This document shows, one piece after another, positions 12,030 through 60,402 of a DNA stretch of 64,000 nt (its first letter is position 1; every line of letters begins with the position of its first letter). The position numbers and the translations under genes are program-made. Source of the stretch: an uncultured virus (IMG/VR IMGVR_UViG_3300005083_000010) (lineage: Duplodnaviria > Heunggongvirae > Uroviricota > Caudoviricetes); the IMG/VR virus record IMGVR_UViG_3300005083_000010; one strand, written 5' to 3'. The notes under the pieces were generated by a model, which worked only from the letters and a program-made list of their open reading frames with translations, did not search any database and was not told the DNA's origin.

Positions 12030-12052
12030 TTACCCTACCTCCTTAGCGCGTC

Positions 12053-15820: not shown

Positions 15821-15831
15821 CACCCCCATAG

Positions 15832-15945
15832 AAAAAGCCGCCCTAAGACAGACGTTGTACACGTCTGTCCTTGGCGGCTGTTTGAAACAACCTTCACAAC
15901 TATTCAACTACTACCATTATACCACAAACAAAAATTTTGTTAAGT
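15832..15945 (-). promoter_or_regulatory. Late promoter + structured terminator/antiterminator leader, copy A
   Basis: TTAACA-16-TATAAT (TGTG extended); leader nearly identical to 37347-37426; hairpin followed by TTTTT. Confidence 0.8.
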
Positions 15946-28074: not shown

Positions 28075-28104
28075 CCACCGTCACCCCATTCATGCAGTCA
28101 TAGG

Positions 28105-33440: not shown

Positions 33441-34600
33441 CTTTCTAAATTTACTAAAATCTGCGACTACGCAAATTTCACATTAGATTCCTGCTTCGTA
33501 GCACCCTTTAGACGCTCCACAGGCTTAACTTCCGGTGCTGCCCACCGTAGTATATTTATCGCCGCATTTACATCGCGGTCGTGTTCCGTTCCGCAATCGG
33601 GACACTTCCATTTTCTTACCGACAGCCGCATTTCTCGCTGATAATACCCGCATATGCTACAAGTCTTGCTCGACGGTTCGAATCTTCCGCAGTACCGCAC
33701 TTCGTTAGCTTTGTACTCGAAATGTCGTCTTATTTCCGCAAAAGCAACATCTGATATGGCGCGGGCTAAGTTATGGTTTTTGACCATACCAGCCACATTC
33801 AAGTCTTCAAGACATATCGTTCCGTACTTCTGCGTCACGTCCGTAGTAAATTTGTGCGTGTAGTCATGCCTTGCACAAGCTGCCCGATAATANNNNNNNN
33901 NNNNNNNNNNNNNNNNNNNNNNNNNNNNTGTGCGTGTGCTATCTTCTTGCGAAACTTCTTTTCAACGTGTGGGTTCGGATATTTCGTGCCGTCCGACAAT
34001 GTGGCGAGGTCTTTTACACCTAAGTCTATTCCAATTTCGCCAGACGCTTGGTTTTCGCTGTCAGGCACTTCGCATTGGATAGACACGAACCACATATCTG
34101 CCGTTCTCGACACCGTTACGTTGTAAATCTTTTCTGCTTCGTACCGCAGTTCTTCCGACATCTTGATTTTGAGTTTCTTCGGCAATCGAATGTATTTCCC
34201 GTCAAACTTTACAACCGAACCGTCTATCCTGAAACTGTCGCGTACACCTTTCTTGTGGAACTTCGGGTGTGCGTTCTGCTTGCTGTACATCTTCTTGAAC
34301 GCACCGTCAAGGTCGTTTAACGCTGCTTCTGCCACCCACTTGCTGACTTCATACACAAACGGGTATTGTTCCGCCTTGATTGAGTTCCACCATCTCTTGA
34401 TTGAGTAATAGTTGTGCTTGATTCCGTTCTTATAGTCCTCGTTCCATTTTGCAAGACAGGAATTGTATGCAAGGCGAGCCACGCCGCAATGCTTTATAAG
34501 CATTGTCTGCTGTACGTTATTCGGATATATCCGTATTTTGTGCGCCCGCTTCATCCCTTATCAACTCCTTTGCCTTTTTGTATTTGCGAAGACCATACCG
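33441..34600 (-). mobile_element. Non-autonomous IS607-family derivative (tnpB + tnpA C-terminal remnant)
   Basis: Flanked by GG on both sides; YGLRKYKK remnant upstream of tnpB; removal restores GGAGG-TAGGACGT-ATG. Confidence 0.7.
33467..34554 (-). CDS. tnpB: TnpB RNA-guided endonuclease (frame split only by the N gap at 33893-33928)
   Basis: HKIRIYPN HTH; GIDLG, LEDL, HDRDVNAA RuvC motifs; CxxC..CxxC. Confidence 0.92.
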
Positions 34601-37275: not shown

Positions 37276-37346
37276 CTTTCGCCCTCCTGACTGGTTTGTC
37301 AGCCTATATTTATCTGCGGCTTGGTGACCGCTAAACATCTGCAAAT

Positions 37347-37460
37347 AAAAAGCCGCCCTAAGGCAGACGTATGCAGCGTCTGCCCTTGGCGGCTGTTTGA
37401 AACAACCTTCACAGCTATTCAACTACTGTCATTATATCACATTTTCGACGTTACGCAAGT
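37347..37460 (-). promoter_or_regulatory. Late promoter + structured terminator/antiterminator leader, copy B
   Basis: TTGCGT-16-TATAAT (TGTG extended); same leader as copy A with compensatory changes. Confidence 0.8.
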
Positions 37461-39895: not shown

Positions 39896-40138
39896 TCAAT
39901 CAAAGAACGCGTGTTCGCGCTTCTCTTCCTTTACAGGCGTCGGGTATATCCCCTTCGCTCTGCGTATCAGGCTGTACGTCCGCTTTACCGCTTTCGCCGC
40001 CACCGCTTGCGGCGCGTCCGGCGCGGGCTGTTGCAGCGCTTTGCCTATGCGTATACCCCATTGCAGAAACACGCACGCACCTGTCGCAAACACCAACGCG
40101 AACGCTATAAAGACTAAAAACCCGTAACCATCACCCAT
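39896..40138 (-). CDS. Small membrane protein
   Basis: Single TM; preceded by TTGCGC-16-TATAAT promoter. Confidence 0.55.
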   Translation of the reverse strand: MGDGYGFLVFIAFALVFATGACVFLQWGIRIGKALQQPAPDAPQAVAAKAVKRTYSLIRRAKGIYPTPVKEEKREHAFFD

Positions 40139-40189
40139 ATCTTGCGTCCTCCTGCCCTCATTATACCACATATGGTATTTTGCGCAATG

Positions 40190-42085
40190 TCAATCGAACG
40201 GATTCAGCCGCGATTCCGTCGCCCCGACCCGCGCCTCCGTGTCCCTGTCGAAACTCCCACGCTCCCGCCATACCACCGCCTCCGCTTCAAAGCTTTGGTG
40301 CCGCCGTACCTCGCTCGCTATCATGTCCGCGAACAGCACGTCGTCATGTTTCCCCGGCATTGCGTCAGGTCTACCCTTCGCGTCCCTCACGAATGTCAAG
40401 CACTCCTGCAACATCGTTATGTCGTTGAACAGGTCTATGTTGTTCTCTATCAGCGCTATCTCTTTGTCTATGATTAGCGGGCGCGTGTTCCCGTCCGTCT
40501 TCCACCCGTGCGCCGCCTTGTACTCTCCCGTCATGTCGTCGTACCGCCTCCGCTGATACTGTCGCGGATAGTGCAGCCGCTCCAATTCCTCTATCGGCGC
40601 CGTGTTGAAATTCATCTCTATCGCTATTAACGCCATCTGATAAAACCACCCCAGACAATACACCTGCCATGTGTACGGCTTGCTGTGCGTCCAGTTCCCG
40701 TGCAGCACCGCCGCCCGGTTACCCGTCACGTTGTTTATCACCACCGCCGCGTACTTGTCGCTGTTCGCGCTCTCGCCCTTCGTGTCCCCGCCTATCACGT
40801 ACGGCACGTTCTCTTGTGGGTATTCGTATATCGTCGTGTGTCCGTTCTTGTCCTCCCTGAACCGTATCGTCGGTCGCCTTATCGCGTTCTCCGTCTCCGC
40901 GTCCTCCCAATCAAACGTGAAGTACCCCCGCTTCGGCGGCGCTTGCGCGTACTTCTGCCTTAACACCGTTATCCGCTTCTGTACCTTGTCGTTGTTGAAT
41001 ATCGGCGTCCCCGAGAATATGAACGCCTCCTCCGCGCAGCTTGGGTATTCCTGCTTCATCAGCGCTAAATCGCTCTTGTTGCTTACCTTGAATTGCCACA
41101 CCCACCACGCCACTTGCTCCGCCGTTAACCCGTACTCTATCACCGCGTTCGTTATGTATTCCTCCGCGTCCGCGTTGTCTAAACCCTTTATCAGCTCCAT
41201 CGTCGTCTTGTCCGTCGCCTGCCGGTAGTCCGCGTAGTCCCACCACGCGAAAAACATCGTGTCCCAGCCCCCGCCCTTCTGCGCGTCCGTCCATAACGTG
41301 TAGAAGTCGTTCAACCCGTTCGCCGTGCTCTCTATCACTACCTCCGTGTGCGGTAACGCAGGCACCGCCGCCATTATGCCCGCTAACTGCGTTAACGCAC
41401 TTTTCCCCTGCGGCGATTGCCAAAACCCAAACTCCGATAAGTGCGCGTACGCCACCGTGTCGCCGCGCCCTATGCCCACATCTCCCGCCGTCTGTATCGT
41501 TATCTTCGAGTTTAACCCCTTGCCCCCGCCCTTGTGTCCCGTCGGCACGTCAAACACTAACTCCGTCGCGTTCGACTTCTTCCGTAGCGGCTTTACTTCC
41601 TTCGCCATCATGTCGTACATGTACTTCGCCTTTGAAAATATCTTCCCCGTCGCGTCTGATGTGTGCGCCACTATCAACCCTACGCTGTTCTCCTTCGTCA
41701 CGCAGTTGTACATCATGCGCCCCTGCTCGTTCGTGCTCACACCCTCCTGCCGCGCCTTTAGGATTATCAGCCGCACCGGTCGCCCCGCTGCGTGCGTCGC
41801 CTCTATCCGCTCGTTTATCCGCCGCTGTATGTCGTTGTGTATCAAAGGCACCGTCGCACCGCTCTTGTCCACTATCTTTAAGTACCGCTCCGCAAACTTC
41901 CCGTAATCCTTTAATGCCTCGTATGCCTCCTGCTCGTCAAGCAATGCATACACTTCCTTTAGCCTCGCCTCGTACCGCCGACGCGCCTCCGGCTCCATGC
42001 GCGCTATCTCATCAGCCGTCTTTATCCCTACCCCCGCTATCCGCCTACTCGTCGTCCGCGTCGTCGTATTCGTCATCGTCGTCAT
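40190..42085 (-). CDS. terL: Terminase large subunit
   Basis: ILKARQEGVST Walker A, HLSEF Walker B, ESTANG, IGGDT, HDDVLFA; start uncertain. Confidence 0.93.
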   Translation of the reverse strand: MTTMTNTTTRTTSRRIAGVGIKTADEIARMEPEARRRYEARLKEVYALLDEQEAYEALKDYGKFAERYLKIVDKSGATVPLIHNDIQRRINERIEATHAAGRPVRLIILKARQEGVSTNEQGRMMYNCVTKENSVGLIVAHTSDATGKIFSKAKYMYDMMAKEVKPLRKKSNATELVFDVPTGHKGGGKGLNSKITIQTAGDVGIGRGDTVAYAHLSEFGFWQSPQGKSALTQLAGIMAAVPALPHTEVVIESTANGLNDFYTLWTDAQKGGGWDTMFFAWWDYADYRQATDKTTMELIKGLDNADAEEYITNAVIEYGLTAEQVAWWVWQFKVSNKSDLALMKQEYPSCAEEAFIFSGTPIFNNDKVQKRITVLRQKYAQAPPKRGYFTFDWEDAETENAIRRPTIRFREDKNGHTTIYEYPQENVPYVIGGDTKGESANSDKYAAVVINNVTGNRAAVLHGNWTHSKPYTWQVYCLGWFYQMALIAIEMNFNTAPIEELERLHYPRQYQRRRYDDMTGEYKAAHGWKTDGNTRPLIIDKEIALIENNIDLFNDITMLQECLTFVRDAKGRPDAMPGKHDDVLFADMIASEVRRHQSFEAEAVVWRERGSFDRDTEARVGATESRLNPFD

Positions 42086-43070
42086 AGCACACATCTCCTT
42101 CCGCGTCATCATCAGCGTCATCGTCATCGCCATCGTCTGCGTCATCATCGTCATCGTCCGCGTCCTCGCCATCGTCTGCGTCATCGTCGTCGTACTCGTC
42201 GTCGTCGTACACTAACTCGAAATCCCCGTCCGCTGTCTCTATCAGCCGCCCTTCCCGCTTGCTCGCACCTTCGCCCGCTCCCTGCACCCCCGCAGGCAAA
42301 CACCTCTGCCCCCCGTTTACCGTGTACGCTGTGTCTGCCGTGTTCGCCCCGTGGGTGTAGGTAGTATCTCCTGCGTATACCCCTTGCGGATTATCCTCCG
42401 AGCAGCTTGTGTCGTTTGCCGAGCAGCTTGTGGCATTTGCCCCGTGCGCACCTTGCGCGTTGCCGCTTTCTCCCCCGCTTGCCCCTCGCGCGTCGCCGCT
42501 GTCCACTTCCTCGTACTCCACTTCCTCGTACTCCGCCTCCGTCACAAGCTCCGACAACAACTCGTTCAACCGCCGCTCCCTCGCCTCCGCCGCTTCCTCC
42601 GTCATCTCTACCTTTACGTTCACTTGCGCCCCCACTTGCGCCTCCCGGTACTTCTCCGGTAATGCCCCCTTTAGCAAAAATTGTAATAAGCTGTCGCTGT
42701 ATACCTTCTCTTCCCCTACCTTCTTCCCCTTGTACCATACCGGCGCCGAGTATCCTAACGCCCTCCGCCGTGCCTCCGTCTCAAGCGCGTGCGCCGCCAT
42801 CGTTAACGCCTCATCATAATCCGCCGCATACGCCCAGTCGCTCCTTAACCATTCCTTGTGCTGCCTTACACTTACTCCCGATACCACCGAAGCCCCACTC
42901 GTGTTCCCCGTCTCCGCTATCCCTACCAAATACGCCATCTTCTCCGGCTCGTGCTTGTATCTGTCCGCCCATTGAAATCGGTACATCTCATACCGTTCCT
43001 CGTTCTTCTTCACCGCCCGCTCTATCATGCCCTTGCTCGATATTAACGGCATTTCTTCACTACCTCCCAT
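42045..43070 (-). CDS. terS: Terminase small subunit with acidic tail
   Basis: ALETEARRRALG..YSDSLLQFLLKG..PEKYRE. Confidence 0.85.
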   Translation of the reverse strand: MGGSEEMPLISSKGMIERAVKKNEERYEMYRFQWADRYKHEPEKMAYLVGIAETGNTSGASVVSGVSVRQHKEWLRSDWAYAADYDEALTMAAHALETEARRRALGYSAPVWYKGKKVGEEKVYSDSLLQFLLKGALPEKYREAQVGAQVNVKVEMTEEAAEARERRLNELLSELVTEAEYEEVEYEEVDSGDARGASGGESGNAQGAHGANATSCSANDTSCSEDNPQGVYAGDTTYTHGANTADTAYTVNGGQRCLPAGVQGAGEGASKREGRLIETADGDFELVYDDDEYDDDDADDGEDADDDDDDADDGDDDDADDDAEGDVCYDDDDEYDDADDE

Positions 43071-43224
43071 CTTCTTGGTTTAGAAGATTGACCTTGCCTG
43101 ACCTTCCTATACCCCCATTGTAGCACATCTGTTCCGTCTTGTCTGCATGGCTTAAACCTCTCTCCGTAGACGCTTTGCCGCCTATGTCACCTATAACGGT
43201 GTCCGTATGCTTTATCCGTATATC

Positions 43225-43348
43225 CGTTTACTTTATATTCGTAATCGTTTACTTTATACTTGTAACCGTTTACTTTATATCATTAACATACTTAATAACC
43301 TAAATCGTTTACTTTATATCCTTAATAACCTAAATCATTTACTTTATA
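43225..43348. repeat. Five CRTTTACTTTATA direct repeats
   Basis: Starts at 43225, 43246, 43267, 43306, 43336. Confidence 0.9.
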
Positions 43349-43703
43349 GCCTAAAGCGTTTATTGTGTTAATCCCTTCAACCCTTCAACCTTATACCTCC
43401 CCCTCCTTAATCCCCCCCACTTTAATCCCCCATTAGCCCCTCGCCCCATATGCTTGGTAGGTGCCCATGCTCCTATGTACTTTTATACGTGGGAACTTCC
43501 TTTGACCACCTCCGCGCGAGACGCCGCCCGCCGAAGCCGCCTACCACCCCCCGCCTCGGAAAAACCCCACCCCCCTTGAAATCCGCTCTGGAACCGCACT
43601 CCGACACGCGGCGCTGTCATATCGCGCGGCGCTCTGCGATACATACACACATATCACAACAACAATCCGCGCATACATCAGGAGCGCGGACGCGGGCAAA
43701 GGT

Positions 43704-43836
43704 TAACCGGCACGGAGGCTTGACGGCACGGNNNNNNNNNNNNNNNNNNNNNNNNNNNNNNNNNNNNNNNNNNNNNNNNNNNNNNNNNNNNNNNNNNNNN
43801 NNNNNNNNNNNNTTGACGGCACGGAGGCTTGACGGC
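43704..43836. repeat. 16-bp tandem repeat TTGACGGCACGGAGGC spanning an assembly gap
   Basis: Same unit on both sides of the N run. Confidence 0.8.
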
Positions 43837-43964
43837 GCCACGGCTCACCAGACGCGCGGGAACGGCTCTTAAACCGCTCCGAAGCGGGAAAAGGTATCAG
43901 GATATTACCCGAACGGATTAACGGCTTAAATCGGCAAATAGACGGCATAGCGTTGACGCAAAGG

Positions 43965-44031
43965 CATAGCGGAGTGTCAGCGGAGGCATAGCGGAGTGTC
44001 AGCGGAGGCACAGCGGAGTGTCAGCGGAGGC
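43965..44031. repeat. 22-bp tandem repeat GCGGAGTGTCAGCGGAGGCAYA, about three copies
   Basis: Read directly. Confidence 0.85.
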
Positions 44032-44210
44032 GCGACAGCACATCAGCACATCGGCGCGGCGGGCGCATAAAGCAAGCAGCCCCGGGCGGGCGGAGAGAGG
44101 GAAAAAAGGTTAAAACCCGCTTGAAATAGCATGTTTCACGACTTGTTAAAGATTTATCAATTCTCAAAAACAAGTGTTTTTGAGAAAACGCAAAATTGGA
44201 AATTTTCGAG

Positions 44211-44490
44211 AATGCCACAAATGCCACAAAAAGGCACACTACCAAAAACCTCAAAAACCGCTTAAATACTATATTTTAACCTTAATGTGGCATTTGTGGC
44301 ATTTGTGCCTTACTCAAAAACTTTTTATATGAAAGGATAATAATGGTAATTATTTATTTATAAATTCCCTATTTTTTTCCTTTTCTATATACTTTATATG
44401 TACTATGCCACTATTGCCACACAATTCCGGGCAAACCCGCGCCACGACTGGGCGGGAAGGCGTGGCATGGGCAAAAATAAAATGCCACGC
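44211..44490. other. Candidate replication origin: TGCCAC/GTGGCA iterons around an AT-rich core
   Basis: About nine iterons in both orientations, several as pairs 9 bp apart; AT-rich 44320-44400. Confidence 0.55.
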
Positions 44491-44704
44491 CTCTGACCTT
44501 CTCTGACCAAACTTCAAACCCGCTCACCGCCTGCGTTTTCGGGTTTTTTGGAAATAAATCCAAGGAAAATTTGTCAATATCTCTCAAATGTCATATAATG
44601 TATACTTATATATCCTTATATCTCCAAACATGGTAATTCGGCAAAACGAAAAAGCCGGTCAAGGCAAGACCGGCTCGGGCTGATAGATGTATGCGTTAAC
44701 GTGG

Positions 44705-45019
44705 TTATCCTCCGTAGGTATCTTGGACATATGCGGGCAAGTCTGCGGGAGACATGCCGTCAGCGACCCACTTATAAGCCTCATCGGACATATCAGTAAT
44801 GCGCACGATGGTATCATCGGGCATGTTGGAGAGAGTGTTATAGCGATGACCGCCTGAGAGTAGGCATAGGCACTCACCGTCGTCGTAATAGCACAAGCCG
44901 TATGCGTCGTCGAGCTCCAAGCAATAATCGGCGTTGAGTGTCTCACGGTGATAGGTGATACCGTAACCGTCGTATAGCTTAGAGCGGATACAGCCCCACG
45001 TAGTGGTAGTGGTATACAT
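44705..45019 (-). CDS. Hypothetical acidic protein
   Basis: AAGGAGG RBS before MYTTTTTW. Confidence 0.6.
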   Translation of the reverse strand: MYTTTTTWGCIRSKLYDGYGITYHRETLNADYCLELDDAYGLCYYDDGECLCLLSGGHRYNTLSNMPDDTIVRITDMSDEAYKWVADGMSPADLPAYVQDTYGG

Positions 45020-45032
45020 CGTGATAACCTCC

Positions 45033-45341
45033 TTATAATATGTCATCAAGGCATATATCGTCGATAACGGCGCCGGCGGTGTCGGCGTCGTGGCTGTGTG
45101 CGTCAATGGTGCGGGCGTCATCGGGCGCAATTACAAGCCTTATTGCGCCGGAAAGCTCCAGATACACATGATAAGACGCGTCAAGTGCGGCGGCAATAGC
45201 GGACAATTCCGCGATTGTAAAGGTATCACGCTTGAGTTTCTGGTTAAAATTTGCGGGCGTCATGCCTATAGCGCGGGCAAGATTAGCTTGACTAATATTG
45301 CGGTAAGCGCAGGCGGTTTTGATAGCTGTTTCTGTCGTCAC
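45033..45341 (-). CDS. XRE-like HTH regulator
   Basis: ISQANLARAIGMTPANFNQKLKR. Confidence 0.8.
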   Translation of the reverse strand: MTTETAIKTACAYRNISQANLARAIGMTPANFNQKLKRDTFTIAELSAIAAALDASYHVYLELSGAIRLVIAPDDARTIDAHSHDADTAGAVIDDICLDDIL

Positions 45342-45585
45342 GGGTTAATCCTCCTATCTAATAGTGATGATAGCAGTATAACACGCTCATGTGTATGTTG
45401 TCAAGCCTTATATTAGCGTTATTAATTAATATCTTAATTAATTCAAAAAATCTATTAATAAAATTAATAATAATCTATTGGCATTATTAAGCGATTGCTT
45501 TATACTATTAAGCAAGAAGTAGATGAACTTTGACAACAAGATACCGGCAAGAGGCGGTTGAGAAGTCAACCGCCGCCGTCAGCAG

Positions 45586-45801
45586 TCAACCGTCGTCGAC
45601 ATGCTCCATGATGTCAGCGGGCTGACAATGGAGAGCTGTGCATATCTTATCAAGCATGTCCGTAGTAAGGTTATCATGCTTGCTAAGCTTAGCCAGAGTG
45701 GTAGTTGATATATCTGCGAGCTTAAGCAACTCCATTTTTTTGACGCCGCGCCGGTTGAGCAAGTCAAAGAGCTTGTAGTATTTGATAGCCATGCAATGCA
45801 C
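45586..45801 (-). CDS. Cro/C1-type HTH regulator (HTH_26-like)
   Basis: IKYYKLFDLL..TLAKL..LDKICTALHCQPADIME. Confidence 0.85.
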   Translation of the reverse strand: MHCMAIKYYKLFDLLNRRGVKKMELLKLADISTTTLAKLSKHDNLTTDMLDKICTALHCQPADIMEHVDDG

Positions 45802-45882
45802 CTCCTACAAGCATTTTAGCGCAATTAAGTCACTGTGGCAAGAAATATTTATGAAAATTCAGAAATTTTTTTGAAAAAGGTA

Positions 45883-45916
45883 TTGACAAGTTAAACATGT
45901 TTACCGATAATATAAT
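45883..45916 (+). promoter_or_regulatory. Early operon sigma-A promoter with palindrome TAAACATGTTTA in the spacer
   Basis: TTGACA-17-GATAAT, AT-rich UP region. Confidence 0.7.
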
Positions 45917-45979
45917 TGTGAGAACGCAGAAATAATTATTTAAGCAAATAATAAATTATGAAAGAGAGAGGGAAAGACG

Positions 45980-46357
45980 ATGACAACAACAGAGATAAGG
46001 AAAGAACTTGAAACCCGTAAAGACCGGAGCGCATGGAACAAAGGCGTAACGGTATACGCTTTGGAGCTGATAGACAGCTTAGAGGAAAACGACGTCACGG
46101 AGCTAACCGGAGCGCCTGCGGACAGGCAGGAAATGTTAAACGGCGCCAAGGACTGGGCGCAATACTCATGGGGAGGCTGTGCGCTTATCTATGATGAGGA
46201 CATCGCGACGCGGTTATGCACGGCGTCGGAGCTTAAGCGCACGGCGCACGGCGCACGGCGCCCAAACGCGCGGGAAGAATGGCTTGACGTTCAGGCGCGG
46301 GCGTTATATCAGGCGGCATACAGGATTTTATGGTTGGCGAAGGCGGGAGGCAAATGA
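45980..46357 (+). CDS. Phage early protein of unknown function
   Basis: First gene after the promoter; RSAWNKGV..NGAKDW..YSWGG. Confidence 0.75.
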   Translation: MTTTEIRKELETRKDRSAWNKGVTVYALELIDSLEENDVTELTGAPADRQEMLNGAKDWAQYSWGGCALIYDEDIATRLCTASELKRTAHGARRPNAREEWLDVQARALYQAAYRILWLAKAGGK

Positions 46358-46485
46358 CAATTCTTGAAGTGGCGGCGGTACTACTACCGCCGATTGGGTT
46401 TACGGTGGCGGCGTTTATAGCCGCGCACGTGATAGTAGAATCGGGTATCAGAAAATATGGCGCGAAAGCGGACAAGGAGGATTAA
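46354..46485 (+). CDS. Small membrane protein (43 aa)
   Basis: Own translation MTILEVAAVLLPPIGFTVAAFIAAHVIV; GGAGG RBS, ATGA overlap. Confidence 0.55.
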   Translation: MTILEVAAVLLPPIGFTVAAFIAAHVIVESGIRKYGAKADKED

Positions 46486-46489
46486 GACA

Positions 46490-46741
46490 ATGGCAACAAC
46501 AATGGCAAGGCGCCCGATACCGGCGCCGATAATCGCGGGTTATGACCGCCCGAACGACGGAAAGGCGCGTGAAGTGTTTTACCAACACGCGGAGACAAGC
46601 GATGTAACCTACAATCTGGACAAGGCGCTTGCGTGGTATAGCAACGGCGCGTCGGTGCTTGTATGGAATCCGGTTATCGGGATGCCTGTACAAAACACGG
46701 ACAGGCGTGAGACGTGGGTACACGAGATAACCTTATATTAA
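46490..46741 (+). CDS. Small early protein
   Basis: AGGAGG RBS. Confidence 0.65.
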   Translation: MATTMARRPIPAPIIAGYDRPNDGKAREVFYQHAETSDVTYNLDKALAWYSNGASVLVWNPVIGMPVQNTDRRETWVHEITLY

Positions 46742-46743
46742 GC

Positions 46744-46813
46744 GCCGAAACGGCGGGGAGAAAGCCCGCCGTCTGCGGGAGAGTGGCACTCACCGCACCG
46801 ATGAGGCAAGCCA
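46744..46813 (+). ncRNA. Type II hammerhead ribozyme (CCGAUGA core variant, loop I pseudoknot), copy 1
   Basis: GCC-GAAA-C-GGCGGG/CCCGCC-GUC-UGCGG/CCGCA-CCGAUGA-GGC; loop UGGC complementary to 3' GCCA. Confidence 0.85.
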
Positions 46814-46844
46814 AAATAACAATAACATAGGAGGGCTTAAGGAC

Positions 46845-47066
46845 ATGACGATGAGACGAACCCACGCAGTATCATGCGACGGAAACGGTTTATGGTATGC
46901 ACACAAGGTAGGTTTTCCGCATATTCCACTTGCCGGCTCATTTAGCCGGCGCCGAGCGGACGCGGAAAAGCTTGCGGCGGCAATGCAGGCGATACCGGTA
47001 CAAGAGTGGCGCAAGCTGCGAGACCAAGCCAAGTACCGGAATATATCAGGAGAGACTTTTAATTAA
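46845..47066 (+). CDS. Small early protein flanked by hammerheads
   Basis: AGGAGG RBS; 73 aa. Confidence 0.7.
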   Translation: MTMRRTHAVSCDGNGLWYAHKVGFPHIPLAGSFSRRRADAEKLAAAMQAIPVQEWRKLRDQAKYRNISGETFN

Positions 47067-47137
47067 GCCGAAACGGCGGGAGAGGAAACCCGCCGTCTGC
47101 GGGAGAGTGGCACTCACCGCACCGATGAGGCAAGCCA
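47067..47137 (+). ncRNA. Type II hammerhead ribozyme, copy 2
   Basis: Identical to copy 1 except the stem III loop. Confidence 0.85.
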
Positions 47138-47167
47138 AAATAACAATAACATAGGAGGATTAAGACA

Positions 47168-47590
47168 ATGGCAACAACAAAGACATGGCAAGTTACTATA
47201 GTGGAGACGCTCCGCAAAACGATAATGGTTGAAGCCGCGACGCGGGAGGACGCGCAAGACGCGGTAGAATCCGCGTGGCATGACGGCGACTATGTGTTAG
47301 ACGCCGATGATTTCAGCGATGTAGAGTTTTACACGGAGGAAGCGACCGACGACGCGGAGGAAATCGCGGAGACGCGAGCGGAGTTTGCGCGGGAATCCAA
47401 GGCGTCACGGATTGCGCGATTGTACCCTAACGCGACATGGGAAGCGGTTGACAAAGACAAATGCGCAGATTGTGAAAGGTTTTGTTCGAAGCACCGCTTC
47501 CTATACCGCGTTTTTGACGAATACGGGCTTATAGCGGTGTTAACTTCAAATGATTTTGGCTATGTGCCTGTTTGCGAAAGGGAGGATTAA
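47168..47590 (+). CDS. DpnD/PcfM-like protein
   Basis: VTIVETLRKTIMVEA..EDA..YVLDADDF..VEF. Confidence 0.7.
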   Translation: MATTKTWQVTIVETLRKTIMVEAATREDAQDAVESAWHDGDYVLDADDFSDVEFYTEEATDDAEEIAETRAEFARESKASRIARLYPNATWEAVDKDKCADCERFCSKHRFLYRVFDEYGLIAVLTSNDFGYVPVCERED

Positions 47591-47593
47591 GCT

Positions 47594-47794
47594 ATGACAA
47601 CAACAATAATGCATGTGTGGGCTATACGCCCGCACATGTGGAACAAATGGCAAATCTGTTTTCGCATGGGCGGGCTTGAGCTTTTAGGAGAGGCGCACGG
47701 CGCGACGCGCAAAGAAGCCGTCAAGGACTTACGGCGGCGCGGATACACGGTGCCGCGCGAATTAGAGAGAGAAGGGAGGCGGCAGGCATGTTAA
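47594..47794 (+). CDS. Small early protein
   Basis: GGAGG RBS. Confidence 0.6.
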   Translation: MTTTIMHVWAIRPHMWNKWQICFRMGGLELLGEAHGATRKEAVKDLRRRGYTVPRELEREGRRQAC

Positions 47795-48012
47795 ACATAG
47801 CTGTGGTAGTTAAGCGGGTGTCAAATTCCGATTACAGCGGTTATGTAATCGGAAAATTGGAGTACACGACGCCCGATGGGCAATTGTTCCCTTGTACGTA
47901 CACCCGCAGGGAAGGCGACACGGACACAACAGACACTTGGGCGCGTATGCGCCATGAGCTACCCGACGCGTCATGGGACGATGTGGAAATCGGAGATTAC
48001 ATCTCCGGTTAA
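47788..48012 (+). CDS. Small early protein
   Basis: GGAGG RBS, overlap with the upstream gene. Confidence 0.6.
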   Translation: MLNIAVVVKRVSNSDYSGYVIGKLEYTTPDGQLFPCTYTRREGDTDTTDTWARMRHELPDASWDDVEIGDYISG

Positions 48013-48138
48013 AACGGGCAGGACGCCGGACGGCGCGGAGCAGTTTAAGCCATTACTCATAGATGGGTAATGGTTTTTGCTGTGAATCCGACAAGCGAAC
48101 GACACAAGTTGACACGACAAAGAAGGAGGGAAAACACG

Positions 48139-48723
48139 ATGATTTACGGTTACGCACGGTGCAGCACGAACGAGGACAGGCAGGACATCACGCGGCAGAC
48201 GCGGGAGTTAATGGAGCTTGGAGCGCGGGAGGAAAACATATACTTTGAGTATGAAAGCGGGTGTAAGGTAGAGAGGGCGAGACTTAGCGCACTACTTGCG
48301 GCGGTTAAGCCGGGGGACGTGATAGTTACGACGGAGGTATCACGATTGACGCGCAGCACGCGGCAGCTATGCGACATTATACAGCTTGTGCAGGACAGGC
48401 GGCTAAAGCTGATAATCAAGGGCAGCATAACGGTTGATTGCACCGACGGCAGCATGGACGCCATGACGGCGGCATTCTTGAAGATAGTCGGCGTGTTTAG
48501 CGAGCTTGAGCGCGACATGATTTCAAGCCGAGTGCGTTCAGGGCTAAACAATGCGCGCGCGAAGGGCAGGACATTAGGACGCCCGGCGGCGGTGCGAGCG
48601 GGCGCCGATGAATTTCGCCAGGAGGTAGAGGACGCGCGGAGGGCAGGGCTATCTATGGGCAGTATCGCGAAGGCACGGGGTATAAGCACGGCGACGCTTT
48701 ACCGCAAGCTGAAAGAGGCGTAA
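48139..48723 (+). CDS. Small serine recombinase (resolvase/invertase) with C-terminal HTH
   Basis: YGYARCST..Q..RQ..ESG..SRLTRS..ELER..GRP..ISTATLYR. Confidence 0.92.
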   Translation: MIYGYARCSTNEDRQDITRQTRELMELGAREENIYFEYESGCKVERARLSALLAAVKPGDVIVTTEVSRLTRSTRQLCDIIQLVQDRRLKLIIKGSITVDCTDGSMDAMTAAFLKIVGVFSELERDMISSRVRSGLNNARAKGRTLGRPAAVRAGADEFRQEVEDARRAGLSMGSIAKARGISTATLYRKLKEA

Positions 48724-48759
48724 GCCGAACAAACACAAGCAGATACGAACAATTACGAA

Positions 48760-48790
48760 CAAAGGCGCTCCACATCGAGAGCGCCTTTTG
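48760..48790. terminator. Bidirectional terminator between convergent operons
   Basis: AAAGGCGCTC..GAGCGCCTTTT. Confidence 0.75.
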
Positions 48791-48798
48791 CTTGTCGG

Positions 48799-49146
48799 CT
48801 ATATCCACGCTTTTACCCGCGCGGAGGGGTTATCCTTGGCGGCGCGCAGGACGTCGGTCAGGAACCGATAGAATCCGCTGATAGTTCCCCAACCGTTCGG
48901 CGCTTCATACTGTTTATATTCCGCAGGGTTTTCATCGAGCAGTTGAACGGCGCGTTCGAGGGGCGCTACGAGGTCGGCGGCGTGAAGGTGATCGCCCGGG
49001 TGCCACAGAATCTCATAGACGCCGAGCGCTTGCGCCATGCCGCCGAGGTTATGGGTAATATTGCGCCAGTACAGTTCAGTACCGTCAACGGTGCCGCCGC
49101 AATGCGGGCATTTTACATCTTCTATTAGATACAGGTCAAGGCTCAT
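48799..49146 (-). CDS. Hypothetical phage protein
   Basis: MSLDLYL..NITHNLGGMA..PNGWGT. Confidence 0.7.
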   Translation of the reverse strand: MSLDLYLIEDVKCPHCGGTVDGTELYWRNITHNLGGMAQALGVYEILWHPGDHLHAADLVAPLERAVQLLDENPAEYKQYEAPNGWGTISGFYRFLTDVLRAAKDNPSARVKAWI

Positions 49147-50597
49147 TGATAGTGCTCCTTTTCGATTTTATACTTTACGGCGTCGAGGATAGACGCTTGA
49201 ACGGTGTCTTTACGTTCGAGGACGGCGGCGACAGCTTCATCGACGGTACCGGCGGAAAGCAGCCGATGTATTATTACAGACGGTGCTTGTTGTCCCTGAC
49301 GCCACAACCGCGCGTTTGCTTGCTGATAGTATTCGAGATTGTATGTAAGCCCGTACCAGATGATTGTATGCCCGCCGCCTTGGAGGTTAAGCCCATGCCC
49401 GGCGCTTGCGGGGTGCGCGAGCAGGACGGGTATTTCCCCGGCGTTCCACCGGTCGATTATTTCAGGCGAGCTTGGCAGGGTCTGCGCGGCGATTTCAGCC
49501 AGTATTGCGTCGCGGTCGTGTAGAAATTCATAGAATACCAAAACGGGGCTTAAAACGCTTTCTACGAGGTCACAGAGCATATCAAGCTTGGCGCGGTGCA
49601 GGGTAACGACGTCCCGTGTTTCGGTGTAGGCGCGTCCGTTACAGAATTGTAGGAGCTTATTGACGACACCGGCGGCGCTTCCGGCGGTAATTGTTTCGCC
49701 TTGAAGCTCGAGAAGCGCGGTGCGTTCCATCTTCCTATACGCTTTCATCGCGGCGTCGGGCAGCGTAACGCGGAGGTCATTAACCACACGGTCAGGCATT
49801 TTGAGCCAATCTTCCGCGCGGAGTGCCACGGTTATATCTGACAACTTGTCCATGATGATTTCCTTGGCGCCCGCGCGGGGCTTATAGGACGCCACGACGG
49901 GATAACCGCCGGTGTACAGTATTTTATCAGGCTCCATATACATTTGCCTGAATCGGGTTATCGAGGTTTCGAGCCGTTCGCCTTTATCGAGCAGATATAT
50001 TTGTCCCCACAATTGTTCTATCGAGTTCGGCGCGGGCGTGCCGGTAAGCTCCACGACTTGGCAAGCCGTATGTTTGACAATGCGCGCGAGGGTTTTAAAC
50101 CACGCGCCCGACGGCGTGCGGAATCCCACAGTTTCATCAAGGATTATGAGGTTGAAGGGAAACACATGTTTGTTATCCCATTGCCATTTACCATGCGACA
50201 GCTTTTTGGTGTACCGGTCAAACAGCCATTGAATGTTATTCCGACACATAACGGCGATGTCAAAGCCATGCGGCGCGGCGTTGATACCATCGAGGGCGGC
50301 GGCGCGTTCGACGGCGGTGCCGGTCAGCTTCACAAGCCGCAGATACCGCAGATGATTCCATTTGCGCAGTTCGTCTGACCATGTATGCTCTGCTATTGCT
50401 TTCCCCGACAAGACAAGCGCCTTGACGGGCAGGCAATAGTCATAGACAAGGTTATTGACGGCGGTCAGCGTTGCGACGGTTTTACCCAAGCCCATTTCAG
50501 CCCACACCGCGCAGGACGCGCCCGATTCAATCATTTCGGTAATCCGCGCCTGATACGGGTGAGGGGTGTATGCGATTACATTAAGCGTATCAGCCAA
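49143..50597 (-). CDS. SNF2-family helicase
   Basis: EMGLGKT, LDE, LTGTPAPN, HPASAGHGLNLQ, QANARLWRQGQ. Confidence 0.92.
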   Translation of the reverse strand: MADTLNVIAYTPHPYQARITEMIESGASCAVWAEMGLGKTVATLTAVNNLVYDYCLPVKALVLSGKAIAEHTWSDELRKWNHLRYLRLVKLTGTAVERAAALDGINAAPHGFDIAVMCRNNIQWLFDRYTKKLSHGKWQWDNKHVFPFNLIILDETVGFRTPSGAWFKTLARIVKHTACQVVELTGTPAPNSIEQLWGQIYLLDKGERLETSITRFRQMYMEPDKILYTGGYPVVASYKPRAGAKEIIMDKLSDITVALRAEDWLKMPDRVVNDLRVTLPDAAMKAYRKMERTALLELQGETITAGSAAGVVNKLLQFCNGRAYTETRDVVTLHRAKLDMLCDLVESVLSPVLVFYEFLHDRDAILAEIAAQTLPSSPEIIDRWNAGEIPVLLAHPASAGHGLNLQGGGHTIIWYGLTYNLEYYQQANARLWRQGQQAPSVIIHRLLSAGTVDEAVAAVLERKDTVQASILDAVKYKIEKEHYQ

Positions 50598-50851
50598 TCG
50601 TTGGCGTCCTCCTTGCTCCATATTTCGACATAGCGGTAATGCCGTTCTTTGAGCCACAGTTTCCAAGCCTTTTGCCGCTCCGACATAACGCCGCCGGGGC
50701 GTTTAAACTCGACGAACCAAACCGCGCCGTCGTCACACAGCGCGAGCCGGTCGGGAATACCGGTATTGCCGGGGCTAATCAGTTTTATCATTCGCAGTCC
50801 CTTCTTCTCGAGCTTCTGCTTCACATATTTCTCGATGTCCTTCTCCAACAT
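50576..50851 (-). CDS. VRR-NUC nuclease
   Basis: EKDIE..GIPDRL..FVEFKRPGG..Q. Confidence 0.9.
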   Translation of the reverse strand: MLEKDIEKYVKQKLEKKGLRMIKLISPGNTGIPDRLALCDDGAVWFVEFKRPGGVMSERQKAWKLWLKERHYRYVEIWSKEDANDWLIRLM

Positions 50852-51272
50852 GTTTTTCCGCCTCCGGTTTAAACGATTCACGGCGCAAATGCCGTGCATA
50901 TTCTTCATCATTGTGTTTTTTCTCGTCGCGCGAGCGCTTGTATAATTCAACTTCTTCTCGAGCTTTACGGTTTGTGTACCGTTTAAAGCATTCGGACTTA
51001 TCTGACATCTTGAATATCCAATTAAGCGCGTCGCGGTCTTTAGGTATGTATCCGCTCCACAGCATAGCGCCTTTAAACTCACCGTTTGACACATAAAACC
51101 CGCCTATATCGCCGCTAAAAATGTGTTTCAAGCCGTAACTTGTGTATTTTGTGTAATACCTTTTTTGTGGTGTTATTTTTTCAGCAATCCATTTAAGCAG
51201 CACCTTTTTATCATCTTCTGACAGTTCATAAAACCGTTCCGGCTCGTCACCGGCTGTTCGATACTTCGACAC
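50775..51272 (-). CDS. Hypothetical protein (SYGLKH motif)
   Basis: GGAGGT RBS; TSYGLKHIF..YVSNGEFKGAM. Confidence 0.6.
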   Translation of the reverse strand: MSKYRTAGDEPERFYELSEDDKKVLLKWIAEKITPQKRYYTKYTSYGLKHIFSGDIGGFYVSNGEFKGAMLWSGYIPKDRDALNWIFKMSDKSECFKRYTNRKAREEVELYKRSRDEKKHNDEEYARHLRRESFKPEAEKHVGEGHREICEAEAREEGTANDKTD

Positions 51273-53604
51273 AGTATTTACCTCCTTTACGGTCAAATAC
51301 ATGGTGTTGTACACCATAATTCGGCACACGTTTTTTGCCCACATATATCCAGTCTTTCTGCTTACGCAGAACCCGCGTAATATCTTTAGCGTTGTGTTTT
51401 AAATCTGACAAGTTTTTGTGCAGGCATTCGCACCATACGGTGGCGGCGCAAATGCGGTCAGGTATTTCTTCGATTGAATCCGTGTCGCCCTCAAGCCATG
51501 CCTCTATTACACCGATTGTCGCGTCAGTTTCCTCGAACTGCGCTTGTGATTCTTCCACTTGTGAAATCATGTGTTCGGGAATCAGCGCGTCTTCGCCTTG
51601 CTTATAGTAATAATAAGCTTCTGCCCAGTATTGCTGTACCAATTTGTCGGTTAACTCTTTAAACAGGTTTTTTGTACGCTTTTTGGGGTTTATTCGTATG
51701 CACCAGAAGCGCCGGTTACCTGTTTTGTCCCGCAGAAATTCTTCTTCGTTTGTGGTACCAAAGAAGATAGCCTTGCGGGGAAAATCGCTAACTTCGCGGT
51801 CGTATGCTACGCGATAAGAATCCGTTGTTTTTGTGATGAATTGCTTTACATCTTCTATTTCCGATTTTTTGTATGCACTCATTTCACCAAACTCAAACAA
51901 CCACGCGCTTTGCAGCATTTCACCTGCTTCTTTAGAATCGAAATTCTTTAACGAATCGTTAAACCATTCGCCGCCCATACGGGCTAACAGACTACTCTTA
52001 AACCCGCCTTGCGCTCCGACAAGGATAAGCACGTAGTCATGTTTACAGCCCGGTTCATAAATGCGCTTTACACCGGCGATAAACTGCTTACGGGTAAACA
52101 TGCGGTTAATCTCTGACGCTTCCGCGCCCAAATACTCAACGAAAAGCGTTTCAAGGCGTTCTACGCCGTCCCACGGCGCCGATTCTATATATTCTTTGAT
52201 AGGGTGAAACGGATTGCGCCGTGCGACGTGAGTAAGCGCGTCCACAAATCGCACAGAGCTACTAAGCCTAAAATTACTCTCAAGCCATACCATAGCTTCC
52301 CTATCATCAAAGCCTTGCCAAGCTTCATACTCTTTGTGGTGCGTATCGTCCATTTTTCGCCACGGCAGGTTTTTTCGGATTGAAATCCTATGCTTAAATT
52401 CGTCAAATGCTAATACATCTTTAAACGCGCCGTTTTGTAGTATTAGCACGTAGTTATCTCTAACATCAACTAAGCCGTTTTTGCCTTTGACCAGTTTTTT
52501 CAGCCAAGCGTCCGGGTCATCGTCTATGTTGTCCAAGTTGTCCGTGTTATCCGTCTCGTCGGCGTCGAACACGCCCGCCGCCTCGGCTGTTGTTTTCTCC
52601 TGCATTTCCGGCAGCGCAGACGCCCACGCTTCCATAGCCTTTTGCGACGGCATATCTCCTATAGGCGTATCAGGCGCGGCGTCCTTGTCCATTTCGCCAA
52701 ACATGTGTATACGCACTAAATCCCAAGCATTGCACTCACGGCAGCTTATCGGGTCTGTTGCGTGCAGGCTGTAGGCATACTGCGCGTTATCGTAGAGCAG
52801 CAAGCCGCCGCTTAGCGCCGTACCGTGCGCCCAAGAATATTGTCGGTCGTTAAACCTGATATACTTGTCCGGCAGATACTTAGTTATAGCGCCGTGAATA
52901 TCTCCGCACGCGCGGCAGAACCGTCCTACAATGCCATCTTTTTCACGCGGATCCGGGAGCTTGTTTCCTTCCGTCACGTGTACTTCCTTTTCGGATTTAA
53001 ACTTAAGCCATTGCTTTGTATCCACCCACCACGGGTTATCTCTTACCCACGCGGCGACATCGAGCGGAGCGCCGTCTTGACGCTCCGGCAGGTGCGGCAC
53101 ATCTTTAGGGAGCGTGGGCATATACATTCCGCGTTCGGGCTGTATGGTCGTCTTGTCGAAATAGTGTTCGCCCAGTTCAATCACAAACTTCCGCGCGATT
53201 GCTTCATACATTATCGCGCTCACAGGCTCGCTGAACGGTGCTACTATCCGCAGCTTTTGCTTATCCTCGCTCCACGACACGGTTTGATACATCACGGCGG
53301 CTAAATCCGGGTACAGCGTGGTAAACCTAAGCCACAGAAATTCATCGCCGTTATCCGCGTCAAGCGTGAGCATAGAGCGGTTAACCACTTCTCCCCTTGC
53401 GCGGCGCGTGCCACGCAGCGCGCCGCCGACAAATATATAGCCGTCTTTTTGCTTCTTAACCTCCGTAGTGTCGGCGGCGACACACGAAAGCCGCCGAAGG
53501 TGTTTTTCCTCCGTCAGCTTATCCGCGAACGCGTCCCACAATTCGGTTACTTGCCTATAGCTATTGCTTTCGGCTTTTGGTGCTATGTGATATGTAACAT
53601 ACAT
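51247..53604 (-). CDS. Primase-helicase (PrimPol-like N-terminus + VirE/VapE ATPase)
   Basis: LTLDAD; PGCKHDY..GAQGGFKS..FGTTN..DKTGNRRFW. Confidence 0.9.
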   Translation of the reverse strand: MYVTYHIAPKAESNSYRQVTELWDAFADKLTEEKHLRRLSCVAADTTEVKKQKDGYIFVGGALRGTRRARGEVVNRSMLTLDADNGDEFLWLRFTTLYPDLAAVMYQTVSWSEDKQKLRIVAPFSEPVSAIMYEAIARKFVIELGEHYFDKTTIQPERGMYMPTLPKDVPHLPERQDGAPLDVAAWVRDNPWWVDTKQWLKFKSEKEVHVTEGNKLPDPREKDGIVGRFCRACGDIHGAITKYLPDKYIRFNDRQYSWAHGTALSGGLLLYDNAQYAYSLHATDPISCRECNAWDLVRIHMFGEMDKDAAPDTPIGDMPSQKAMEAWASALPEMQEKTTAEAAGVFDADETDNTDNLDNIDDDPDAWLKKLVKGKNGLVDVRDNYVLILQNGAFKDVLAFDEFKHRISIRKNLPWRKMDDTHHKEYEAWQGFDDREAMVWLESNFRLSSSVRFVDALTHVARRNPFHPIKEYIESAPWDGVERLETLFVEYLGAEASEINRMFTRKQFIAGVKRIYEPGCKHDYVLILVGAQGGFKSSLLARMGGEWFNDSLKNFDSKEAGEMLQSAWLFEFGEMSAYKKSEIEDVKQFITKTTDSYRVAYDREVSDFPRKAIFFGTTNEEEFLRDKTGNRRFWCIRINPKKRTKNLFKELTDKLVQQYWAEAYYYYKQGEDALIPEHMISQVEESQAQFEETDATIGVIEAWLEGDTDSIEEIPDRICAATVWCECLHKNLSDLKHNAKDITRVLRKQKDWIYVGKKRVPNYGVQHHVFDRKGGKYCVEVSNSR

Positions 53605-57300: not shown

Positions 57301-57521
57301 ATGTTCCCCGCTTCTATGTCTGCGATAGCAAACATGAGTATCGTCATTGCGCGAGATTTCACGTCGTCATGGTTTTCAGTTCCCGCCTCCATCATTTCAA
57401 AAAACATTTTCTGAGCGATAGGTTCTAACCTATCAACGAGAAACCTACGCGCCGCTTTGTCGATTTCTTCTTTTTCGTCTTTCGAGTGCTTCTTCTTCTT
57501 TATAGGTATCACGTTATTCAT
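57297..57521 (-). CDS. Small hypothetical protein
   Basis: GGAGG RBS, ATGA coupling. Confidence 0.6.
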   Translation of the reverse strand: MNNVIPIKKKKHSKDEKEEIDKAARRFLVDRLEPIAQKMFFEMMEAGTENHDDVKSRAMTILMFAIADIEAGNI

Positions 57522-58279
57522 ACAGCCGTCCCCTCCAGTTTCTTTTGCTCCTGCCGCTTAAGTTTTGCGGCGCGCACGAGTTCATTTTCCCTGCGCAGAA
57601 TGTCTCTCATTGCGTGTAGTTTCACTTTGACCTGCTGATAGATGACCTTGTAATGCAGGTTCTGTGCCATTCCATCAAGAATAATGTGCCGCATTTCAAT
57701 CTCGTACATCATAATGTCCGCAAGCTTGCTCTTGTCGCAGTCGTCGCGGCTCTCATATCCGGTGATGTCTTTAACAAGCTTCGAGTAAATCAGGTAATAC
57801 TTATCCGCGTGTTTACTGCCTTGCGCTTCTGCGTAGTCAACAAACATCTGTATAGCGTCAGTAGCCATGCCGCGATAATACTTACCCTCCGCTCTTATCA
57901 ATTGCCATTCATCGGTATGACGTTCGGCAAGTTGCTTCTCCATTTTGTTAAAGGCGTTTATGTAAGCTTCCTTGAACTGAGCCGCCTTTTCACCTCTGTA
58001 TCCCATGGTTAAAAACGTGAAGCCGTCTTTTGTCAGGAGGTATTCTGGTCGTTTCTCTCCTTTGTTATCTGTGTATTTAACGAGCCCAAAGTTGGACTCG
58101 TTAAACCCCTCCGAGCAGTCCAAATTTTCTATATCCCTTAAAACATGCTTATGGTTTTTATGAAACATCGCGGCAACGTCTCTGCTTGATATGCGAGCAG
58201 TATCCTTCCAAACAATAAGGTGTGTTTCCTCGGGCGATTCAATCTTTTTCGTTACTATGTTCTTCTTGCTCTTTGCCAT
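57518..58279 (-). CDS. Rha-family regulator
   Basis: SRDVA..F.KNHKHVLRDIE..YLLTKDGFTFLTMGYRGEKA..FK..YI.AFN.ME. Confidence 0.9.
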   Translation of the reverse strand: MAKSKKNIVTKKIESPEETHLIVWKDTARISSRDVAAMFHKNHKHVLRDIENLDCSEGFNESNFGLVKYTDNKGEKRPEYLLTKDGFTFLTMGYRGEKAAQFKEAYINAFNKMEKQLAERHTDEWQLIRAEGKYYRGMATDAIQMFVDYAEAQGSKHADKYYLIYSKLVKDITGYESRDDCDKSKLADIMMYEIEMRHIILDGMAQNLHYKVIYQQVKVKLHAMRDILRRENELVRAAKLKRQEQKKLEGTAV

Positions 58280-58296
58280 AAACTTATTCTCCTTTC

Positions 58297-58671
58297 TTAA
58301 TGCTGTTTCCATAAGTCCATCGTCCTCCCTTCGTCTAAGTTAATCAGGCGGTTAAGGTATTGCCGCGCTTTCTTCAAGTCCTGCGTCCCCGCCTTGTGCG
58401 ATTCACGCCACACATATTTCATGATTACAGCCTTGCAGTACCCGCGAAATTCCTCTTTCGTTAACGCGCTTTGGATAGCGTCTATGCACTCAACGCCGCC
58501 TTGCGTGTAGTGCGGCGGCTCGTACACCGCGTTATTCTCCCGCACCAATTTAAACGTCAAGCAATCGTTCGGGTCGCAATTTACATCACGCGTATCATAC
58601 GCGGCGCACTTGAATAGCTGTTCCGCGTCGCTCCATCGCGCAAATTTGCAGTCGTGCTTTTCAATCGCCAC
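58297..58671 (-). CDS. DUF3310 (nucleotide-kinase-like) protein
   Basis: PPHYTQGGVECIDAI..KYVWR..K...DLKKA..YL. Confidence 0.85.
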   Translation of the reverse strand: MAIEKHDCKFARWSDAEQLFKCAAYDTRDVNCDPNDCLTFKLVRENNAVYEPPHYTQGGVECIDAIQSALTKEEFRGYCKAVIMKYVWRESHKAGTQDLKKARQYLNRLINLDEGRTMDLWKQH

Positions 58672-59619: not shown

Positions 59620-60402
59620 CTATACCTCCATCAATGCCAATTCGTCGTGGCACACAGCCCTAAGATAATCGACGACGGATTCACTCCACCTGATTTCATA
59701 GCCCGAATGCCCGTTTCGTGTGTAGGGATATTCCCCTGCGTACTTCTTGCCGTCATCGGTCAGCCGCCATTCGCCGTCAATCTTCGCTTGCAGTCCTGCG
59801 CTGTACAATAATTCGTTAGTCTTTTTTGCGGACAAACCGCCAAGCTTCTCGCCTATTTGTGTCGCGTTGTATGTATGCACCGGTACATCGTCCGGCTTCG
59901 CGGGAAGGAGTGCTTTGTATGATGAGAAGTCCGAGCCGGTTATGCGCTCCGCGTCGGCAATAGCTTTCGAGTAAGCAATGCCTATCGGCACAGCCCACTT
60001 CTTTGCTATCAATTCAGCATTGCGTATCTCGTCGCGGAACACTATGCCGCGCAATCCGTCTCTCTTTTTCTTTTCCGCTATTAGCACTTGCCTGTAAGCC
60101 GCTTCTGCTTCGATGAAATACTGCCGGAATTGTCTGCCCTTCTCCGAGCGTTGGAGCATACATATCTCTTTCGCCATGTCGAGAGTAAGCTGATGGTCAG
60201 TCCTCGGCTTGCCCGGTAAGCCGTCAGACCTATTACTCAAAATTGAGTAATAGTCTTTCCCTTCCTCAAACCCGTACTCGCACATACGCTCAAACCAATC
60301 GTTGTATCTGGTCTCCACTTTAAGCGCCGTGTGTAAATCCCTTCCTAATACTGTCTGCTTGCCGTCCTGCTTGTTCGTGCTGATTTTAATTAATTCGTTC
60401 AT
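59620..60402 (-). CDS. AntA/AntB-family antirepressor
   Basis: GRDLH..YNDWF..LTLDMAKEICMLQR..G..FRQYFI. Confidence 0.9.
   Translation of the reverse strand: MNELIKISTNKQDGKQTVLGRDLHTALKVETRYNDWFERMCEYGFEEGKDYYSILSNRSDGLPGKPRTDHQLTLDMAKEICMLQRSEKGRQFRQYFIEAEAAYRQVLIAEKKKRDGLRGIVFRDEIRNAELIAKKWAVPIGIAYSKAIADAERITGSDFSSYKALLPAKPDDVPVHTYNATQIGEKLGGLSAKKTNELLYSAGLQAKIDGEWRLTDDGKKYAGEYPYTRNGHSGYEIRWSESVVDYLRAVCHDELALMEV

Follow-up and report, generated by a model that had tools for sequence, protein, structure and literature searches.

Self-cleaving ribozymes can be found between the small genes of phages, where their purpose is still open (PMC6765202, PMC6155905). The layout considered here has been known in phages since 2011, when clustered hammerheads flanking single prophage genes were described and processing into single-gene mRNAs was proposed as their role (Perreault 2011, PMC3088659). 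Cleavage was seen for three tandem sets in vitro and for one in vivo, and the possibility of circular products was also raised (PMC3088659). Twister and other self-cleaving ribozymes occur as interchangeable classes beside the same small genes, and the processing of polycistronic messages has been proposed for them (PMC6765202). Tandem hammerheads can also be found in retrozymes, plant retroelements with LTRs of about 350 bp and a non-coding interior of 600-1000 bp, where they generate circular RNAs (PMC4918200).

The locus described below belongs to an uncultured tailed phage and lies in a stretch of DNA of 64,000 nucleotides that was analysed as a whole (the window). The clusters of 2011 have two or more hammerheads flanking single genes or short blocks in phage DNA, and here, too, the ribozymes are of type II, loop I can form a pseudoknot with the 3' tail, and the tandem copies surround one small hypothetical gene of a phage operon (PMC3088659). 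Two features set it apart from those clusters, namely a C at core position 4, which the main text of that report mentions only as a viroid variant, and the near-identity of the two copies (PMC3088659). The likeness to retrozymes is that a pair of directly oriented hammerheads could free a unit whose ends can be ligated (PMC4918200). Unlike retrozymes, the locus is part of a phage operon, has repeats of only 91 bp (91-92 nt with loop III) and carries a coding interior, whose protein has relatives in 134 clusters. The locus is one more example of the already known clusters of type II phage hammerheads, here with a tolerated C at core position 4. What is new is modest: C4 is a frequent tolerated variant, and members of the same gene family can be followed by either a hammerhead or a twister. 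The locus nevertheless provides a compact test case, in which a single gene lies between two ribozymes that are nearly identical and the predicted product has 324 nt.

Two type II hammerheads around one small gene

Both copies exceed the gathering score (37 bits) of the Rfam covariance model for the type II hammerhead, RF02276 (Hammerhead_II), with 37.8 bits at 46743-46816 and 38.7 bits at 47066-47140, and can be assigned to this family on that basis. Across the 64-kb window, three Rfam matches were obtained at E<=1, of which only these two are significant, the third being an 18-nt tmRNA fragment far under its own cut-off. A third hammerhead was sought across the whole window and none was found; when positions 40000-52000 were rescanned with the filters off, no extra copy appeared and the next-best score was 8.7 bits.

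Hammerhead 1 (46744-46813, plus strand, as are all operon features given below) was delimited by the Rfam match, the fold and the motif positions. Its stem II is formed by 46744-46746 with 46805-46807, its stem III by 46750-46757 with 46765-46772, and its stem I by 46774-46778 with 46793-46797. A GUC triplet is present at 46771-46773 and a CCGAUGA core at 46798-46804, and UGGC at 46784-46787 can pair with GCCA at 46810-46813 in a pseudoknot of 4 bp. Hammerhead 2 (47067-47137) is equal to copy 1 save for loop III, with the GUC triplet at 47095-47097, the CCGAUGA core at 47122-47128 and the pseudoknot tail at 47134-47137; the 4-bp pairing between loop I and the 3' tail is possible in this copy as well. 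In the Rfam alignment and the predicted folds, loops close stems I and III and stem II is open, which is the topology of type II. Stems II, III and I are all found in the minimum free energy (MFE) fold of each copy (z of -2.3 and -2.8 against 200 shuffles), and in this fold some of loop I is paired in an alternative register, in competition with the pseudoknot. When core positions (C3, C4, G5, A6, G8) and C17 are named by the hammerhead numbering, the consensus core C3-U4-G5-A6-N7-G8-A9, G12-A13-A14, A15.1-U16.1 and the NUH triplet are present in full save for U4, which is replaced by C. At the level of sequence, both motifs are therefore confirmed as type II hammerheads, and they are predicted to cleave themselves.

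Copy 1 begins 2 nt after a TAA (46739-46741) and copy 2 immediately after another (47064-47066, 0 nt). Common to the two copies are a 5' block of 14 nt and an exact block of 70 nt (46765-46834 = 47089-47158), the latter extending to the Shine-Dalgarno sequence, and the copies differ solely in loop III, which has 7 nt in one and 8 nt in the other. Hammerhead consensus places the predicted cuts after C17, at 46773/46774 in copy 1 and at 47097/47098 in copy 2, so that an RNA of 324 nt (46774-47097) containing the ribosome binding site (RBS) and the 73-aa ORF would be released if both ribozymes cut. In an initial annotation of this DNA, two hammerheads 0-2 nt after stop codons had been described, identical except for the loop of stem III, with GUC triplets, a UGGC/GCCA pseudoknot and cuts after C46773 and C47097 that would free this 324-nt piece, and the comparison and geometry above bear out each of these points. 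Its repeat of roughly 100 bp also exists, although the shared blocks and loop III measured here give about 91-92 nt rather than 100.

Phage and operon context

The window covers most of a 65,699-bp contig, with runs of N at 33893-33928 and 43732-43812 that represent assembly gaps or masked stretches. Genes typical of tailed phages are present, including those for a terminase, a portal, a major head protein, a DNA polymerase, a repressor and anti-repressors, and the phage is probably temperate. A Clostridia-like host is suggested by the strong GGAGG sites and by the fact that six of the eight genome records with a related motif are Clostridia.

The ribozymes belong to a series of roughly eight small plus-strand genes, the last of which encodes a serine resolvase, and a repressor gene together with two small HTH genes is divergent from this operon. 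A putative sigma-70-type promoter, a consensus match at 11 of 12 positions, lies at 45883-45911. The first gene (45980-46357, 125 aa) belongs to no named family and has homologues in other phages; among seven loci with such homologues, a hammerhead is nearby in two, once upstream and once downstream. It is followed by an orphan gene of 83 aa (46490-46741), with 2 nt between its stop codon and hammerhead 1, and then by the enclosed 73-aa gene (46845-47066, alternative start at 46851), whose Shine-Dalgarno sequence (46829-46834) forms the end of the shared ribozyme repeat. In both copies, the RBS is about 20 nt 3' of the pseudoknot tail. Downstream of hammerhead 2 lies a 140-aa gene (47168-47590) with an N-terminal DpnD/PcfM-like domain (PF14207, E 6e-19).

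A second exact repeat, of 28 bp, covers an RBS and the first codons (MATT) at 46475-46502 and the RBS and start of the 140-aa gene at 47153-47180. These repeats, of which none would be expected by chance, bound a 678-bp block that holds the 83-aa gene, both ribozymes and the 73-aa gene. Looser copies of the 28-bp repeat can be seen near 45965 and 47579, and M[A/T]TT begins four of the operon genes after similar RBSs, as a second tier of homogenised gene starts.

Related hammerheads and the C4 core

Relatives were collected by scanning contigs from viruses, metagenomes and genomes with sequence patterns. In 29 aligned copies of the family, the pseudoknot helix covaries, with four of five pairs changing on both sides; its cells pair in 94% of cases versus 34-40% when the partners are slid. 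The invariant stems of this alignment belonged to the search pattern and are hence uninformative. With a structure descriptor, 233 hammerheads were found in 171 loci, and 42 locus strands carry at least two. From these loci, some of them overlapping or short-flanked, 45 distinct tandem intervals of 287-1969 nt were obtained. By a crude caller, 23 of them contain a single RBS-led ORF of 50 aa or more, and the flanking copies are at least 85% alike in 13. A stop triplet, counted in any frame, lies 0-2 nt upstream of 89 of the 181 distinct hammerheads. Since this layout recurs across related loci, the arrangement in the window represents the normal anatomy of this hammerhead family. Arrays of 5-7 diverged type II hammerheads per 3-6 kb, with one hammerhead ahead of most small genes, are found in loci L018 and L079 (Singulisphaera record), L069 and L132.

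The CCGAUGA core, which is present in both copies, had been called unusual at first, a description that the relatives do not uphold. A scan of viral contigs was made with all seven core bases free, in which 80 of 124 stretches were analysed and 88 matches were listed; 75 passed a core-blind stem filter, giving 64 distinct sequences. The filter dropped 13 of the 88, among which five look like real hammerheads (CUGAUAA twice, CUGAUGA twice and CUGAAGA once), none with C4 or with a change at G5 or A6. Among the 64 distinct matches listed, position 4 is always a pyrimidine, with U in 53 sequences and C in the other 11, while G5 and A6 are invariant (64/64); the excess of C4 over changes at G5/A6 (11 versus 0) gives a Fisher p of 0.0006 with related sequences counted separately. 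Positions 3 and 8 are C-G in 57, U-A in six and C-A in one of the same matches listed. Covariant U3-A8 cores occur in L093, L115, L124, L161, L165 and L166, and L166, which also has C4, is a double variant. Considering all loci clustered at 88% identity, C4 is found in 21 of 115 clusters, three of which are mixed U/C. The recurrence of C4 while G5 and A6 stay fixed indicates a specifically tolerated variant and not decay.

The same substitution is known from a viroid, where U4C considerably lowers in vitro activity and yet retains enough of it to support infectivity (PMC3088659). That precedent is a viroid, whereas the present cases (11 of the 64 matches listed) are type II ribozymes of DNA phages. 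A survey of 2026 uses CYGANGA as its core descriptor (PMC13481778), and no published frequency of C4 in phage type II hammerheads was found in the literature searched. As U4-to-C is frequent and specifically tolerated in phage type II hammerheads, descriptors fixed on CUGANGA are incomplete and would overlook roughly one in six members of this family. A protonated cytidine can stand in for the U of a U-turn, a motif that also occurs in the hammerhead (PMC4105743), and by analogy C4 may act in this way here.

The enclosed gene and its homologues

The 73-aa gene is taken as real, since a profile search places its product in an unnamed family of small phage proteins with 134 clusters at 50% identity and since its AlphaFold model, a beta-hairpin with two helices, is confident (pLDDT 87.7). 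No Pfam or PHROG family was assigned to the protein, and none of 32 family members has a Pfam match. Fold searches gave no clear known fold (best VIA Z 3.9, best BFVD E 0.03), and the best ESM Atlas feature score, 0.85, is a lead only; these missing structural matches do not demonstrate a new fold. Word-index searches with the 73-aa and 83-aa proteins returned only the window's own proteins. In INPHARED, the 73-aa protein was unmatched and the first operon gene gave one short DNA match. As for close relatives of the cassette, an exact-motif scan of viral contigs gave none, and the 140-aa gene gave no confirmed locus.

Regarding the neighbourhood of the 73-aa homologues, a ribozyme is found beside the gene in one of 25 loci. 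In this locus, L217, the homologue (1198-1422) has its own strong promoter upstream and a twister-P5 ribozyme (62 bits) downstream, which begins at the first base after the stop codon of the gene, is followed by an RBS and occurs as a single copy. In the other 24 loci, no ribozyme lies within 1.2 kb, and the gene hence does not depend on one. The gene family of the 73-aa protein thus shows a swap between a hammerhead and a twister, the latter being a different RNA fold present only once. As the scaffold is another one, the position is the same and there is no upstream partner, L217 fits a cut at the gene boundary rather than matched ends or a circle; the same small gene being trailed by either ribozyme suggests that the cut itself is what matters.

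Processing of the operon message and alternative explanations

The reading that we favour, and consider reasonably probable, is a partial and perhaps slow processing of a long message into hairpin-capped, single-gene linear mRNAs. Transcription from the promoter at 45883-45911 would give a long RNA that spans the roughly eight small genes, and each hammerhead, placed just after a stop codon and 55-70 nt ahead of the next start codon, would cut itself co-transcriptionally. The resulting pieces would be genes 1-3, the 73-aa gene alone (324 nt) and the downstream genes. Owing to the type II topology, downstream pieces would begin with a 5'-OH end carrying the stem I hairpin and the pseudoknot, upstream pieces would end with a cyclic phosphate after the GC-rich stem III hairpin, and translation and decay would be uncoupled gene by gene. 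In the predicted fold of the 324-nt fragment, the stem I hairpin starts at nucleotide 1 and the 8-bp stem III hairpin with one additional C forms the 3' end, so that both termini would be structured; such hairpin ends probably shield the RNA from exonucleases. The two copies probably arose when a ribozyme-plus-RBS module was recently duplicated or homogenised, and this module could double as homology for the gain and loss of genes. Processing of mRNA was already put forward in the initial annotation as a likely role, and it is supported by the known layout, by the recurrence in the family and by the twister at the gene boundary in L217.

Considering the C4 core, the 4-bp pseudoknot and the competing pairing of loop I, cleavage of both copies is probably slow or partial rather than absent. 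In one tested construct, shortening of the pseudoknot from 6 to 4 bp lowered the rate about 20-fold (PMC3088659). In Firmicutes, a 5'-OH end made by a ribozyme can trigger decay instead of protection, as reported for glmS (PMC6765202), and the effect of a cut on expression could consequently go in either direction.

A circular mRNA had also been suggested, in which the hammerhead reaction run in reverse, or a host ligase of the RtcB type, would join the ends of the 324-nt RNA into a circle that resists exonucleases and carries the RBS and the ORF. The ends would indeed be a 5'-OH and a cyclic phosphate, their ligation would rebuild a complete hammerhead, as had been noted, and an end-to-end stem II is predicted in the linear fragment with a probability of 0.39. 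Tandem hammerheads do make circles in retrozymes (PMC4918200). Compatible ends and a rebuilt junction nevertheless follow from any two copies of the same type in direct orientation and are therefore not special to this locus, and the rebuilt hammerhead would reopen the circle, as a ligated hammerhead junction can be cleaved again. The length of 324 nt is a multiple of three (108 codons), and the ORF frame of a circle would contain a single stop codon; as a signal, this length was rejected, since the 45 tandem intervals of the relatives are split evenly among the three frames (15/14/16) and show no constraint on length or frame. Copies at least 85% alike are restricted to the 13 of 45 pairs mentioned above, and the L217 homologue has a 3' twister with no ribozyme-made 5' end. 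Neither RtcB nor an RNA ligase is named among the phage ORFs scanned in the window (43 of the 46 ORFs of at least 130 aa; the parent contig is about 1.7 kb longer). For the same layout, spliced and circular products were looked for in 2011 and not detected, according to the main text of that report, which states this with data not shown (PMC3088659). The literature searched, which covered few subscription journals, contains no circle from phage tandem hammerheads. The suggestion is thus not supported as anything special to this locus, and we regard such a circle as unlikely.

About equally unlikely is a role at the DNA level, in which the 70-bp exact ribozyme-plus-RBS repeat acts as a recombination joint for small-gene cassettes and cleavage is secondary. 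The gain and loss of cassettes, as first proposed, is plausible and has one clear example among the relatives, where a block of about 1.09 kb, 96% identical between L026 and L040/L048 and with hammerhead copies at both ends, is reordered relative to its neighbour. In these related phages, two cassettes delimited by three hammerheads stand in opposite order (L026:1975-3945 versus L040:1982-4379). The window itself holds near-identical ribozyme copies and the second, 28-bp repeat. Among related pairs, flank swaps are found at hammerheads in 16 of 70 and at shifted positions in 14 of 139 (p 0.02, the pairs not being independent), but they are as frequent at hammerhead-free gene starts of the same loci (15 of 54, p 0.54). 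A hammerhead as a special hotspot is therefore not supported against ordinary gene starts: recombination at the repeat happens, and nothing marks it as special. Moreover, if the repeat acted purely as DNA, neither G5 and A6 nor the C3-G8/U3-A8 covariation nor the covariation of the pseudoknot would be maintained. In the searches run, no close relative of the phage was found, either with or without the cassette.

A similarly low probability is given to copies that were recently duplicated, are decayed or near-inactive and persist only as a spacer carrying the RBS. The considerable loss of in vitro activity with U4C (PMC3088659), the 4-bp pseudoknot with its competing loop I pairing, and the presence of the change in both copies, as a single duplication would give, are in line with it. 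Decay is difficult to reconcile with the occurrence of C4 in 21 of 115 clusters, with the lack of G5/A6 changes among the 64 matches listed, and with the other core bases and the stems, which are intact in both copies.

Slightly less probable again is a stable, translated circular mRNA in which C4 has been selected because a slower, pH-sensitive ribozyme with a protonated-C U-turn lets the rebuilt junction remain ligated. If true, a DNA phage would produce a coding RNA circle by means of ribozymes, with C4 tuning the process; only if circles were shown would this be a new kind of system. The least probable proposal, a switch of downstream translation in which cleavage exposes or hides the Shine-Dalgarno sequence, draws on the RBS lying about 20 nt past the pseudoknot tail in both copies and was rejected as very improbable, since in predicted folds without pseudoknots the Shine-Dalgarno core is mostly unpaired both before and after the cut, with no consistent change.

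Other features of the window

Outside the ribozyme operon, three anti-repressor-type genes and one Rha-like gene are found at 1718-4222, 57521-58312 and 59623-60402. In the structural region, two intergenic copies of 100 nt (15827-15926 and 37342-37441), 86% identical and 21.5 kb apart, contain an internal hairpin and have no Rfam match. An ORF of 4041 aa on the minus strand (15952-28077), which adjoins the gene of an internal virion protein, matches PHROG 22978, a family of unknown function. Lastly, a repeated N-terminal DNA segment of 46-142 nt is common to four genes of the tail region at 8840-12836 (families D5 and D17).
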